Of a DNA stretch of 64,000 nt, positions 54,926 through 58,326 are shown in pieces. The DNA is from Alphaproteobacteria bacterium (lineage in GTDB: Bacteria; Pseudomonadota; Alphaproteobacteria; MPNO01): positions 224,001 through 288,000 of the forward strand of contig CBDFLJ010000002.1 in NCBI GenBank assembly GCA_965248835.1, written 5' to 3'. The notes below the pieces were generated by a model, which saw only the letters and a list, made by a program, of their open reading frames with translations, did no database searches and was not told the DNA's origin. The position numbers were made by a program, and so were the translations under genes. Position 1 is the stretch's first letter. Each line of letters starts with the position of its first letter.

Positions 54926-56095
54926 ATGACCTACGACCCGAGAACAGCGACCGGCATTCCGACGGAGCCGGTCGGTTCCCTGCCCCGGCCGATGAAATTG
55001 CAGGAGGCCTACGCGGCCTATGACGAGGGCAAGATCGGCAGGGACGAGCTGGAAGCGGAGCAGGACAAGGCCGTGCGAGATTCGATTTCCCGGATGGAGG
55101 CGACCGGCTCGCCGATCGTCTCGGACGGCGAGCAGCGCTGGTCGAGCTTTGCGACCTACCCGATCACCGATACGCTGGCCGGCACCGGCCTTGCCGAGCA
55201 TCTCGGCCCGGGCGGGCAGTACTTCGCGATTTTCGCCGACGGCCACCATCGCCAGTTGCCGCGCCTGACGGGCGGGCCGTTCCGCTACAAGACCTATGCG
55301 GCCGATTCCCTCCGCAAGGCGCTCGCAGTCGCGAGCAAGCCGATGAAACAGGCGGTGATTTCGCCTTCGATGCTCGCTCTGCTGTACGCGCTTGACGAAG
55401 AAATCGAAGGCTACCCGCGCGAACGGTTCGAAAGCGACCTGATCGACGAATGCGAGAAGGATGTGCGCGCGGCATTCGACGCCGGCGCCGCGCGGGTGTC
55501 GATCGACTTCACGGAAGGCCGGCTGTCCTGCCGCAACGATTCGCGCAACCCGTGGACGGGGCGCAACATGCTTCCGCACTTCGTGGACCTGATCAACGGC
55601 GTGGTCGATCGCTTCACGGTCGAGGAACGGCGCAATATCGGGGTCCACACCTGCCCCGGCGGCGATTGCGACTCGGTCCACAGCGCCGATGTGCCCTATA
55701 ACGACATGCTGCCCAGCATGTTCCAGATCAACGCCGGCTACTTCCTGATACAGCTTTCGAGCGAACGCAATCGGGACCAGGTCTACAAGGACATCGGCGC
55801 CAGCCTGCGCGAAGACGCGAACGGCCTCGCCCAGATGGCCTATGTCGGCGTGACCAACCCGCAAAACCCCCGGGTCGAGTCCCCCGAAGAGGTGCGGGAC
55901 CAGCTTCTCGCCGCGGCGAAGCATATCGCCAAGGAGCAGCTCGGCTCGACCGATGACTGCGGCTTCTCGCCGTTCAGCATCGACGTCAAGCCCAATCACG
56001 GCTCGCCCGGCTACGCCCGGGACGTCGCCTTCCAGAAGATCGAAAGCCGGGTGAAGGGCACGACGATGGCGGCCGAGGAGCTCGGCGTTCACTAG
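54926..56095 (+). CDS. Cobalamin-independent methionine synthase II-like (single-domain) protein
   Basis: TEPVGSLPRP, DGEQR, HTCPGGD, DDCGFSP. GGAGGAG RBS. Confidence 0.85.
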   Translation: MTYDPRTATGIPTEPVGSLPRPMKLQEAYAAYDEGKIGRDELEAEQDKAVRDSISRMEATGSPIVSDGEQRWSSFATYPITDTLAGTGLAEHLGPGGQYFAIFADGHHRQLPRLTGGPFRYKTYAADSLRKALAVASKPMKQAVISPSMLALLYALDEEIEGYPRERFESDLIDECEKDVRAAFDAGAARVSIDFTEGRLSCRNDSRNPWTGRNMLPHFVDLINGVVDRFTVEERRNIGVHTCPGGDCDSVHSADVPYNDMLPSMFQINAGYFLIQLSSERNRDQVYKDIGASLREDANGLAQMAYVGVTNPQNPRVESPEEVRDQLLAAAKHIAKEQLGSTDDCGFSPFSIDVKPNHGSPGYARDVAFQKIESRVKGTTMAAEELGVH

Positions 56096-56241
56096 GGCCT
56101 GATCGGTTGGGGCGGAGCCGGTGTTTTGCGTCGGCATGGGCGCCGACCCCGATCGAGGCCCCCTTCGAGGCCCCGATCGAGGATAGCACTCACCCCGTGG
56201 AATGCAGCCCGATCGGTCCCGGGCGGAAACGGAGCCAGGGA

Positions 56242-57339
56242 ATGACTGAACCCACTTACGAAGCCGCCGGTGTGCCGGTCCGCGAGGCCATCCTCGAGGC
56301 GCACCGCAACGTGTGGCGGCGCATCGCCAGGCCGGGCGCGTGGTTGGACGGCCAGACACGGGTGGCCATCGCCGCGGAAAGCCGCAATGCGCGGGCCTGT
56401 GCGCTCTGCGCGGAGCGCAAGGCGGCCTTGTCACCCTACGCGGTCCAGGGCACGCACGATTCCCGCGGCGGTCTGCCCGAGGCGATTGTCGAGATCGTCC
56501 ACCGCATCGTCACCGATCCGGCCCGTCTGCAGCGGCAATGGTACGAGGCGGTCCTGGCCGACGGGGTGACGCAGACCGAATATGTCGAGGTCGTGGGCGT
56601 GGTGTGCTCGACCGTCGCTGTGGACACGTTTGCGCGCGCGCTGGGCGTGGCCGCGCCGGATCTGCCCGCGCCCGAGCCCGGGGCGCCCGGCCGTCGTCGT
56701 CCCGAGGGGATCAAGCCCGGACGCGCCTGGGTGCCGTGGATCGCCCCGGAGGACGCGAGCGAGGCCGAGGCCGACCTCTACGAGCATGGCGGGGCGAACA
56801 TCCGCCGCGCCCTGACGTCGGTGCCCGACGAGCAGCGCGGGTTCTTCGAGCTGGCCCACGCGCAATACCTGTCGGGCCCCCAGATCCGTGACGTCGGCAC
56901 CGACTACCGCGCAATCACCCGGCCGCAGATCGAGCTCCTCGCCGGCAGGGTGTCCGCGCTCAACCAGTGCGTCTACTGAACCACCAGCCATGCCATGATG
57001 CTCCGTGCGAGCATCGAAAAGAACCAGGTGGACTACGAATTGGGCGGCGTCATCGGCGACGGTGATGGGGGGATTCCGCAAGGCGGGCTTCTGATCGCGT
57101 TCGCCGAAGCTGTCGTCGGCACCGATGACGGACGACTGCATGAGGCGCGCGCGGCGCTGCTGGACGCCCTGGGGCCGGCCGCCCTGGTCGATGCCGCCGG
57201 CGTCGTGGCGACGTTCAATGCCATCGATCGCGTCGCCGATGCGACCGGCACGCCGATCGAAGACGAGCGGATCGAGGCGACCGCGGAGGTGCGTGCGGCG
57301 CTCGGCATCGACCGGTTCCCATCCGCCACCGTTGCCTGA
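56242..57339 (+). CDS. AhpD/alkylhydroperoxidase-related putative selenoprotein (UGA at 56977-56979 read as Sec; 365 aa)
   Basis: ELLAGRVSALNQC-V-Y-TGA-TTSH continues in frame into ORF 56995-57339. AhpD CxxC...H pattern and a downstream SECIS-like hairpin. Confidence 0.8.
56997..57015 (+). promoter_or_regulatory. Putative bacterial SECIS hairpin
   Basis: GATGCTC-CGTGC-GAGCATC. The loop starts 24 nt after the UGA and has G at its second position. Confidence 0.65.
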
Positions 57340-57504
57340 GCGTCCCGGACATGTGGGCGGTCCCCCGTCCCGATCCCGGAGGAAAGAGGCCTGCCGAGCC
57401 GACCCGGAAAAGATGGCCGGTGACGACCGCGCCTACTACCGTGAGATGATCGAAGCCGGCATGGCGGATACCTCCGGTCCAAAAAACCGCCCGCCGCCGC
57501 CGGT

Positions 57505-58326
57505 TTAGACCCGGCCCGCCTCCTGGATGACCGCAGTGTCAGTGTAGCCGGCGATCCAGCGCTCCATCATTGCCATGCACACCGGATCGAGGTCGAAGCG
57601 CGGCTCGGGGTCGGCGTCCCAGTGGCCGCAGCAATCCTGTCCGCGGACCAGCATCGCCGTGCGCCGACCGATGCTGGAGCGCACATGGGTCGGGATGTAG
57701 ATGAACGAAACGCCCATGCGGCGGTAGTCGGCGCGGTTGGGCTCCGAGCCGTGGATCAGCTTCTCGTGGTGGATCGAGAACTGGCCGGCCCTGAGCACCA
57801 GATCGACCGCGCGGCTGTCGTCGATGCCGCTGAGCGCCTGGCCGCGCGACAGCAGGTTGTCGGGATCGTAGGTTTCCTCGTGGATCAGCTCCGCGCCCCT
57901 GTGGCTTCCCGGGATCACCCGCACGCAGCCGCTCTGCGGCGTCGAGTCGCTGAGCGCCAGCCAGACCGTCGCCTCGGTATGCGGGTCGAGCCCGTAATAG
58001 GCCGAATCCTGGTGCCAGGACACGTAGGCGCCGTCGTGCGCGCCCTTGAACCAGAGGCTCGACAGATAGACCAGGATGTCCGGTCCCAGCACGTCCTCGA
58101 CCGCATCGAGGATCGCCGGGTCACGGGCGAGCGCAACGAGCGCGGGGAACACCAGGTGGCATTTGATGCGCAGCGTCTTTGTGGCGTTAACCGAGTGCTC
58201 GGCTTCGTAAGCCTCGAACATCGCGCGCAAGGCCGCCGCCCGCTCGGCGCCGATCCCTTCGATCGGGGCGACGAAGCCGTCGCGCTCGAAGGCCTCGATC
58301 TGGTCCCGGCGCAGCACCTTGCCCAC
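57505..58326 (-). CDS. Phytanoyl-CoA dioxygenase family Fe(II)/2OG oxygenase
   Basis: F.RDG, WHQD..Y, WLALSD, IPGSH, IHGS.PN...RR. Confidence 0.9.
   Translation of the reverse strand: MGKVLRRDQIEAFERDGFVAPIEGIGAERAAALRAMFEAYEAEHSVNATKTLRIKCHLVFPALVALARDPAILDAVEDVLGPDILVYLSSLWFKGAHDGAYVSWHQDSAYYGLDPHTEATVWLALSDSTPQSGCVRVIPGSHRGAELIHEETYDPDNLLSRGQALSGIDDSRAVDLVLRAGQFSIHHEKLIHGSEPNRADYRRMGVSFIYIPTHVRSSIGRRTAMLVRGQDCCGHWDADPEPRFDLDPVCMAMMERWIAGYTDTAVIQEAGRV

Follow-up and report, generated by a model that had tools for sequence, protein, structure and literature searches.

An alkylhydroperoxidase-related gene of the NF041238 selenoprotein family, very probably read through an in-frame UGA, in an alphaproteobacterial genome with five family copies

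The selenoprotein family closest to the subject of this work has been in print since 2005, when 'hypothetical protein 1' of the Sargasso Sea selenoproteome was introduced from four sequences with a CXXU motif, Cys homologues, a SECIS-like (selenocysteine insertion sequence-like) stem-loop and nothing to indicate its function (Zhang, Fomenko & Gladyshev 2005, PMC1088965). A 2026 review equates that CxxU family with NF041238 (PMC13188914); both statements, like the other literature statements below, are taken from consulted portions of the papers concerned. NF041238 is a curated NCBIfam equivalog model named AhpD_rel_CFYUT, 'alkylhydroperoxidase-related (seleno)protein', and NCBI records name members of the family by the title of this model. 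The name 'hypothetical protein 1' is not used in the consulted portions of the Global Ocean Sampling (GOS) paper, and from the same portions it could not be told whether its 'AhpD-like 1' and 'AhpD-like 2' families include NF041238 (PMC2398784). The text of the BSepDB paper holds no entry for NF041238. Here, we analyze a gene on the forward strand of a 64,000-nt stretch of DNA (the window) from an alphaproteobacterial assembly (GCA_965248835.1, contig CBDFLJ010000002.1); positions are those of the whole window unless a contig is named, and translations read TGA as U, for selenocysteine (Sec). An earlier note on this DNA had described positions 56242 to 57339 as a hidden selenoprotein, an AhpD-like enzyme split by an in-frame UGA. 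We conclude with high confidence that this stretch is one gene encoding a 365-residue selenoprotein of the NF041238 family, that its UGA is recoded through a SECIS element inside the gene, and that the product is likely to be a selenol/thiol oxidoreductase.

The family assignment is clear. The read-through product matches NF041238 with 483.9 bits (cut-off 175, E 3.2e-145), its residues 13-360 covering positions 1-356 of the 357 in the model, and in a six-frame search of the genome the same gene scored 475.2 bits with one TGA inside the match. The family motif C-x-Y-U/C-T is present as C243-V-Y-U246-T247. The window copy accordingly reads CVYUT and not the name-giving CFYUT, and we see no other substantive difference between it and the family, with which it shares the position of the SECIS element and the C-x-Y-U-T motif, and which comprises both Sec and Cys forms. 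The gene is, therefore, a member of a published and curated selenoprotein family, known and ordinary rather than hidden, and the novelty implied by the earlier note is not supported, since the family has a curated model, NCBI naming and a record in print.

The UGA is conserved well beyond the window. Five NF041238 paralogues exceed the cut-off in this genome, each with exactly one TGA in the six-frame search, and their motifs read CVYUTTSH, CFYUTTTH, CTYUTAGH, CVYUTSSH and CFYUTTGH; relatives carry two to about six copies per genome. In the sample from the same order, 32 of 41 genomes hold NF041238 matches over the cut-off, and all of the approximately 100 matches listed contain one TGA, none being TGA-free, while one also has a TAG. 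Across the class sample, the family was found in 14 of 301 genomes, with one TGA in all of the matches listed (24 of 24). No member was found among the 400 other genomes of the phylum sample, in which four candidates per genome were scored, a procedure that also missed the fifth copy of the genome studied here. A metagenome scan with a Cys-form protein (P0058) yielded 55 loci, of which 49 cover the site, and all 49 have TGA there under a motif that admitted either Cys or a stop at the Sec column; in the remaining six, the motif was not matched within range. Overall, genomes of the order to which the window organism belongs commonly carry the family, in several copies, and it is sparse in the class.

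Cys forms exist alongside these Sec forms. Three full-length database homologues in alignment A1 read CFYCT..H at the Sec column, and among the best 150 cluster representatives, 28 span the site with Cys, two with Gly and two with Leu, while 95 end just before Sec, 22 are shorter fragments and one is unclear. Because the display shows U as C, ten of the Cys forms were looked up exactly, and Cys was verified in all ten; these come from Logan, ENA, JGI and Tara gene calls, which were made by plain gene callers. The existence of full-length homologues with Cys in place of the UGA, together with a conserved UGA and hairpin, is what the earlier note had proposed to look for. The named relatives are metagenome-assembled genomes (MAGs) of Rhodospirillaceae or Alphaproteobacteria, with one NCBI entry assigned to a Rhodospirillales bacterium, and one Cys-form cluster is labelled Gammaproteobacteria.

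At the level of the reading frame, the observations on which the earlier note was built hold. The first open reading frame (ORF) ends in LNQ-C-V-Y-TGA, and a plain ORF list gives two ORFs, 56107/56242-56979 and 56995-57339, the second of 114 amino acids. Five codons (ACC ACC AGC CAT GCC) separate the second from the TGA, with the frame unchanged, and the earlier note saw no convincing ribosome-binding site for it; a Shine-Dalgarno (SD)-like motif was sought in the sequence upstream of ATG 56995, and none is present. Read through, the frame continues for 119 codons beyond the internal TGA, opening with Thr-Thr-Ser-His, which places U246 in the context C243-V-Y-U246-T-T-S-H250 within a single 365-residue product, as had been proposed. 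A start at ATG 56242 is fitting because the NF041238 match opens at residue 13 of the product from that codon. The translation was inspected for frameshifts and for stops other than the TGA, and there are none.

The best-surviving alternatives to recoding share a very low probability in our judgment, and the first of these is that the TGA is a true stop, leaving either two genes or a 245-residue protein followed by an untranslated remnant, with the hairpin incidental or serving as a small attenuator. The ORF list and gene callers agree with it: the database entry for the window gene itself (P0003) is a 245-residue protein, and the 95 representatives that stop at this point were likewise cut, in keeping with the expectation of the earlier note that automated annotation would split the gene. 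An NCBI entry from a MAG, 245 amino acids long, is titled just 'hypothetical protein'. The ATG five codons past the TGA in the window also favors a separate second gene, and some degree of termination at the UGA is very probable under selenium limitation. However, the part downstream of the TGA keeps the coding pattern of the part upstream of it. Third-position GC content in the same frame of the window gene is 0.88 before the TGA and 0.81 after it, and over an alignment of 39 family genes, the average pairwise difference over codon positions 1/2/3 is 0.319/0.303/0.524 upstream of the TGA and 0.328/0.316/0.542 downstream of it. Both parts also belong to one family model and one compact predicted fold, and the Cys forms are continuous. 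Within 20 codons past the TGA, an in-frame ATG, GTG or TTG occurs in 25 of the 39 genes and is missing in 14, and a downstream start with an SD-like motif is found in one of the 39. The true stops of these genes vary (TAG 18, TGA 15, TAA 6), whereas the internal stop is TGA in every gene of this set, the selection of which is described below. Finally, termination at the TGA would cut the protein within its catalytic CxxU...H motif. By every bioinformatic criterion for a bacterial selenoprotein gene, the UGA is predicted to be read as Sec.

Recoding in bacteria depends on a SECIS element just downstream of the UGA, and the consulted portions of the 2026 review describe a bacterial SECIS model with a loop of 3-9 nt, a stem of 4-16 bp, a G at the first or second place of the loop (with G/U commonly next), a distance of 16-37 nt from the UGA and a minimum free energy (MFE) of -7.5 kcal/mol or lower (PMC13188914). 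The hairpin of the window gene starts 17 nt after the UGA and its loop 24 nt after it, exactly where the earlier note had placed a perfect 7-bp stem, and it fits this model, with a 5-nt CGUGC loop in which G is second and U follows, 7-8 bp and -8.9 to -10.4 kcal/mol. The lower of these energies is that of the UGA plus 45 nt and the higher that of the 19-nt hairpin alone, and the eighth base pair is U56996-G57016, added by RNAfold. An Rfam scan of 55500-58000 (E <= 10) returned three chance-level hits and no SECIS family, the coverage of this SECIS type by Rfam not being known.

The comparative evidence for the hairpin is stronger than its fold. Over the 39 genes (alignment A2), 89.4% of cells in the helix are paired, compared with 26-51% when the 3' arm is slid by one to three columns, and at pair 31-47, the combinations are C-G in 26 genes, A-U in five, G-C in three, U-G in three and other in two. 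The coordinated changes in the two arms (ATG...ATC, CTG...GGC/AGC and GTG...GCA) are non-synonymous, which implies that RNA pairing steers the amino acids flanking a conserved Leu-Arg. Those two residues are themselves frozen at the codon level, with an entropy of 0 at Leu+8 (CTC in 39 of 39) and Arg+9 (CGT in 39 of 39) and 0.49 bits at Ser+11, all three inside the hairpin, compared with 0.66-1.88 bits for the other 42 of the 45 columns in which a residue of four-fold or higher codon degeneracy is conserved. At the remaining Arg columns, CGT is seldom the codon used (1-7 of 36-39 genes), and the third-position difference is 0.196 in hairpin codons versus 0.52-0.54 elsewhere. An independent metagenome set repeats the pattern, with CTC in 49 of 49 genes, CGT in 47 of 49, AGC in 49 of 49 and 292 of 294 helix cells paired. 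The RNAalifold consensus comprises five pairs only, and by manual reading, the subfamily of the fifth paralogue needs a bulged U to form the hairpin. A genome scan for a TGA followed by a hairpin with a CGTG[A/C] loop recovered four of the five paralogues as well as a deiodinase-like and a DsbA-like gene, and a scan with the core motif added an Rdx-like gene; three further hits of the first scan were regarded as chance because of their non-coding-like composition. On the strength of covariation, frozen codons and an apex common to unrelated selenoprotein genes, we take the hairpin to behave as a SECIS element.

The genome encodes the machinery that such an element would serve, which the earlier note had left to be found. 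The genes selA (559 bits) and selB (444 bits) adjoin each other on contig C1, selD (309 bits) lies elsewhere on the same contig, and a tRNA-Sec, also on C1, scores 74.7 bits and is called by ARAGORN as tRNA-SeC with anticodon tca; all four exceed curated cut-offs. A tRNA scan of the window found none, the tRNA-Sec being on another contig. The selA, selB and tRNA-SeC(tca) cluster spans C1:1178871-1184426, with the tRNA approximately 2.2 kb past the selB match. The consulted part of the review notes that selC is nested within selB in some alphaproteobacteria; here, selC sits downstream of the stretch that the selB model matches. In the ribosome, the UGA codon (56977-56979) would be recoded as selenocysteine, with SelA forming Sec on its tRNA from selenophosphate supplied by SelD, and the hairpin, lying within the coding sequence, would recruit SelB with Sec-tRNA(Sec) (anticodon UCA), a binding step we infer. 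What the earlier note had named as evidence against itself was homologues stopping at TAA or TAG, a linker lacking conservation and a genome without Sec machinery; in no case is the internal stop a TAA or TAG, conservation extends to T-x-x-H, and the machinery is present.

Three other genes of the genome have a TGA at known Sec positions of their families and a CGTG[A/C] loop 19-21 nt downstream. The first is a SelW/Rdx-type gene of 71 codons (L063:134-346; TGA at C1 position 1326363, + strand; Pfam Rdx 51.9 bits) that opens MKFRIEY-C-V-A-TGA-N-Y and has the hairpin CCCTC-CGTGC-GAGGG, its loop 21 nt past the TGA and its apex the same as that of the AhpD-related genes. The second is a deiodinase-like selenoprotein candidate with the motif FGSYT-TGA-PPY (L064:365-1051; TGA at C1 position 1772552, + strand; T4_deiodinase 67.1 bits) and a CGTG[A/C] loop 20 nt downstream. 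The third is a DsbA-like candidate of UxxC type, DYV-TGA-PWCY (L065:184-804; TGA at C1 position 1141961, - strand; DSBA 123.6 bits), with a hairpin of the same type 20 nt downstream.

Equally improbable is that the UGA is mostly read as Cys or Trp, by near-cognate tRNAs or a mischarged tRNA-Sec, giving a CxxC or CxxW protein. Cys forms of the family are viable, and in other systems, Cys is known to be inserted at Sec codons when selenium is short. Against this, the whole Sec machinery has been retained, and the hairpin is under strong selection at the RNA level in every Sec-form gene examined, which would be pointless unless decoding were SelB-dependent. The least probable explanation, a pseudogene or a TGA introduced in place of TGC or TGT by a sequencing or assembly error, is effectively refuted. 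Although the contigs end in repeats and contamination is estimated at 9.5%, a TGA at this site is shared by five divergent paralogues, by about 100 genes from other genomes and by 49 metagenome genes, with pairwise protein identities of 29-95% across the family set, and the window gene has neither a frameshift nor an extra stop.

With the gene read as a single selenoprotein, its product can be compared with the known AhpD-type proteins. An AlphaFold2 model built from the 34 sequences of alignment A3 is all-helical, with a mean predicted local distance difference test (pLDDT) of 95.3 and a predicted template modeling (pTM) score of 0.94. The two halves of the chain appear as two lobes of AhpD/CMD type, probably the outcome of an internal duplication, as judged from an hhalign comparison of the lobes (E 2.1e-4, 124 columns) in which C53xxC56 falls on C243xxU246. 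The C53xxC56 pair corresponds to the separate N-terminal CALC motif of the earlier note, at residues 53-56. It is a second CxxC unaccompanied by the Glu/His relay, Val and Lys occupying the equivalent places in the hhalign alignment, and it is kept in 36 of the 39 family genes and deleted in three; the fifth paralogue (C2:1305984) is without it.

By sequence, the C-lobe shows the proton-relay pattern of AhpD, with the second Cys replaced by Sec. Alignment A3 has no variation at E231, C243, U246 (displayed as C), T247 or H250, and Y245 is conserved in at least 90% of its sequences. The relay residues described in the consulted part of the literature are Glu36/Cys48/Tyr50/Cys51/His55 in PA0269 and Glu118/Cys130/His132/Cys133/His137 in M. 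tuberculosis AhpD (PMC3141380), and the spacing of 12, 2, 1 and 4 is identical in the window protein. M. tuberculosis AhpD (1gu9/1knc) and PA0269 (2o4d/2ijc) share the CMD/AhpD fold of the C-lobe (1gu9_A, rmsd [root-mean-square deviation] 2.8 A over 136 residues), and the relay region aligns weakly both with chain residues 111-150 of 1gu9 and with positions 111-150 of TIGR00777. The window protein differs from both in being twice their size, with an extra N-lobe that has its own CxxC, and in having Sec for the second Cys. AhpD in the strict sense has AhpC and a lipoamide-based reductant as its partners. No ahpC was seen among the window neighbors examined; the genome was not searched for this gene.

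Closer by profile and by Foldseek are the proteins of the 'peroxidase-related AhpD core' (6k40, 2prr, 2oyo, 2pfx and 3c1l; TIGR01926-like), whose CxxC...H aligns with CxxU...H. In the profile search against PDB, 6k40, the AhpD of D. radiodurans, was matched at E 3.5e-14 and 1gu9 at E 0.043. Foldseek against PDB gave no match at E <= 0.001 (best 1.4e-3), with 2prr and 6k40 at a TMt of approximately 0.7 and 3c1l, 2oyo and 2pfx also among its matches. These core proteins are single-lobed, approximately 190 amino acids long and Cys-based, whereas the window protein is modeled with two lobes and has Sec. Over the whole chain, a representative-wide structural search (VIA-align) placed human Sestrin2 first (5cuf_A, Z 16.9, rmsd 3.4 A, 242 residues, model residues 1-338). 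Sestrin2 (5cuf, 5dj4) is a leucine sensor with two AhpD-like lobes in one chain, as the window model appears to have, but at 10% identity and with no sequence-level signal, this is an architectural resemblance in which homology is not established. The debrominase Bmp8 (6ohi/6ohj), also of CMD fold, superposes with an rmsd of 2.9 A over 174 residues (model residues 95-355); it is single-lobed and Cys-based, at 16% identity, and it demonstrates that reductive thiol chemistry on the CMD fold is not confined to peroxides. None of the genes around the window gene stood out as halogen-related.

By analogy with the AhpD pattern, the protein most likely acts as a selenol/thiol oxidoreductase. Sec246 would attack an oxidized substrate, which may be a hydroperoxide, a partner protein in its sulfenate or disulfide form, or some other electrophile; the adduct would then be resolved by Cys243 to a selenenylsulfide, and a cellular reductant would recycle the enzyme, possibly through the N-lobe pair Cys53-x-x-Cys56.

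Several points weigh against the decoding or the enzymatic assignment and temper both. The literature search found no selenium incorporation for any NF041238 member. All 39 family genes, from 37 loci, have the TGA in one and the same column, but this is not an independent count because these genes had been pre-flagged as having one TGA and were located by a motif demanding a stop there; the independent counts are those from the order, the class and the metagenomes. Taken singly, the hairpin is mildly unusual, its 71-nt context folding at -18.3 kcal/mol (z = -2.2) with 5 of 200 shuffles folding equally well. Only 15 of the 39 genes keep the outer end pair of the 7-bp stem of the window, double-sided change occurs at one pair only, and the covariation score of 0.197, matched by none of 500 shuffles, comes from related sequences, so that such counts overstate significance. 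The freezing of hairpin codons was measured on Sec-form genes. On the protein side, Pfam CMD (PF02627) barely passes, with 25.1 bits against a threshold of 23 over residues 225-256, while the strict AhpD model TIGR00777 fails (12.8 bits against 191.95, E 0.08, residues 224-262 only), as does the peroxidase-related model TIGR01926 (41.3 bits against 81.8, residues 226-341); because the last two cut-offs were missed, we do not call the protein AhpD. The structural matches of the C-lobe, at Z 12.9 for Bmp8, 12.6 for SMU.961, 12.5 for 2pfx, 10.8 for Atu0492 and 8.0 for M. tuberculosis AhpD (model residues 160-357 for the AhpD/CMD matches), have to be read with the note of the tool itself that helical models can reach a Z of approximately 13 by arrangement alone, and in this model-based comparison, the Sestrin2 match alone stands clearly above that level. 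The hhalign probability behind the duplication of the lobes is only 46%, and the gene neighbors differ between family copies in the flanks examined. It is the comparative evidence, and not the fold of a single sequence, that places the hairpin beyond chance, and we continue to regard recoding of the UGA as the very probable reading.

The features of the gene and of its paralogues on contigs C1 and C2 of the assembly are collected in Table 1.

Table 1. Coordinates of the NF041238 gene, its elements and its paralogues (window positions unless a contig is named).
Feature	Position	Strand	Comment
Terminator-like hairpin	56102..56122	+	Just 3' of the upstream gene; consensus scan, 2 sites against 0.7 expected; weak evidence
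Shine-Dalgarno-like GGAG	56231..56234	+	7 nt 5' of ATG at 56242; read from sequence
Single selenoprotein gene, NF041238 member (very probable)	56242..57339	+	365 codons; terminal TGA 57337-57339
N-lobe C53-A-L-C56	56398..56409	+	Second CxxC, without Glu/His relay
Putative relay signature E231-x11-C243-x-Y245-U246-x3-H250	56932..56991	+	AhpD-type proton relay pattern with Sec
In-frame TGA, U246	56977..56979	+	Directly after Cys-Val-Tyr
'Second ORF'	56995..57339	+	C-terminal part of the same protein, AhpD-like C-lobe helices; coverage by NF041238 and by the structural model is continuous
SECIS hairpin	56997..57015	+	GATGCTC 56997-57003, loop CGTGC 57004-57008, GAGCATC 57009-57015
Four further paralogues	C2:2105734-2106789 (-), C2:2479166-2480221 (+), C1:746213-747268 (+), C2:1305984-1307018 (-)		Loci L022-L025, L059-L062; one TGA and hairpin core each

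In the window, the selenoprotein gene follows an EamA gene and a MetE-like gene (a weak match to Meth_synt_2) and faces a PhyH dioxygenase gene, with an MFS gene also among the neighbors. The terminator-like hairpin just 3' of the upstream gene weakly suggests that the selenoprotein gene is its own transcription unit. A function based on an operon was considered and rejected, as the window neighbors do not lie beside the other copies within their flanks; not being conserved between copies, they give no pointer to substrate or reductant. The upstream gene itself (54926-56095, + strand, approximately 390 amino acids) matches Meth_synt_2, the cobalamin-independent methionine synthase catalytic domain, with 29.7 bits over residues 336-380 of the 422-residue translation P0123 (54827-56095), which opens 33 residues ahead of ATG 54926, and from this match, it may encode a MetE-like thiol alkyltransferase.

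EamA genes lie near three of the five paralogues in this genome, which has approximately 37 of them (74 domain hits). A general link between EamA and the family was rejected, given that EamA lies near one of nine copies in three complete relatives, and it is possible that the association is limited to the paralogue-3 subfamily. Within that subfamily, an EamA gene stands directly upstream on the same strand both in this genome (L060:3085-3966) and in a relative from another genus (G007:C1:381750-382559). An apparent EamA-AhpD fusion, in open frames of 671-678 amino acids, was also rejected, being an out-of-frame Arg/Gly-rich reading across the EamA gene.

As to the origin of the copies, two relatives have paired ones, convergent in L038 (G003:C66) and in tandem in L043 (G024:C34), and their adjacency indicates recent local duplication. 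Duplication during assembly was rejected as the source of the paralogues in the genome studied here; approximately 20 kb are repeated at the contig ends only, and the paralogues are divergent. The first ~20 kb of C1 recurs in inverted orientation (99.3%) as the final 20 kb of that contig, the terminal 9.5 kb of C2 matches the beginning of C1 (99.97%), and the repeat stops by ~25 kb. The simplest explanation is that the assembly broke at a repeated element, and these repeats may add to the contamination estimate.

Beyond the decoding of the window gene, a broader reading of these results can be offered, although we hold it to be rather doubtful. It may be that the order has seen a lineage-specific radiation of almost exclusively Sec-using, Sestrin-shaped double-AhpD enzymes, which would perhaps be selenol reductases specialized for particular small-molecule electrophiles, and not general peroxidases, and that the SelB of this lineage would read one narrow apex, C-CGUG[A/C]-G, common to four selenoprotein families. 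Specialization of the paralogues is conceivable because each copy lies in a different metabolic neighborhood, and the constraint on the apex, as part of the same tentative reading, appears strong enough to dictate the Met/Leu/Val...Ile/Gly/Ser/Ala residues that flank Leu-Arg. Neither such a radiation nor a single shared SelB apex was found in the consulted portions of the literature on the family, and these likewise contain no mention of five-copy paralogy within one genome. Judged against those portions, a few points may be modestly new, namely the five-fold paralogy, the near-exclusive use of Sec in the order, the two-lobe model resembling Sestrin and the use of one SECIS apex by four families.

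The current understanding of selenoproteins is unchanged by these results. For annotation, they mean that the window gene and its four paralogues are each to be entered as one selenoprotein and not as a 245-residue protein with a 114-residue leftover. For the family, a genome that combines five of its copies with selenoproteins of SelW, deiodinase and DsbA type, all on one SECIS apex, would be a convenient system in which to study its function, and the same genome would be suited to defining SelB-SECIS recognition in alphaproteobacteria.

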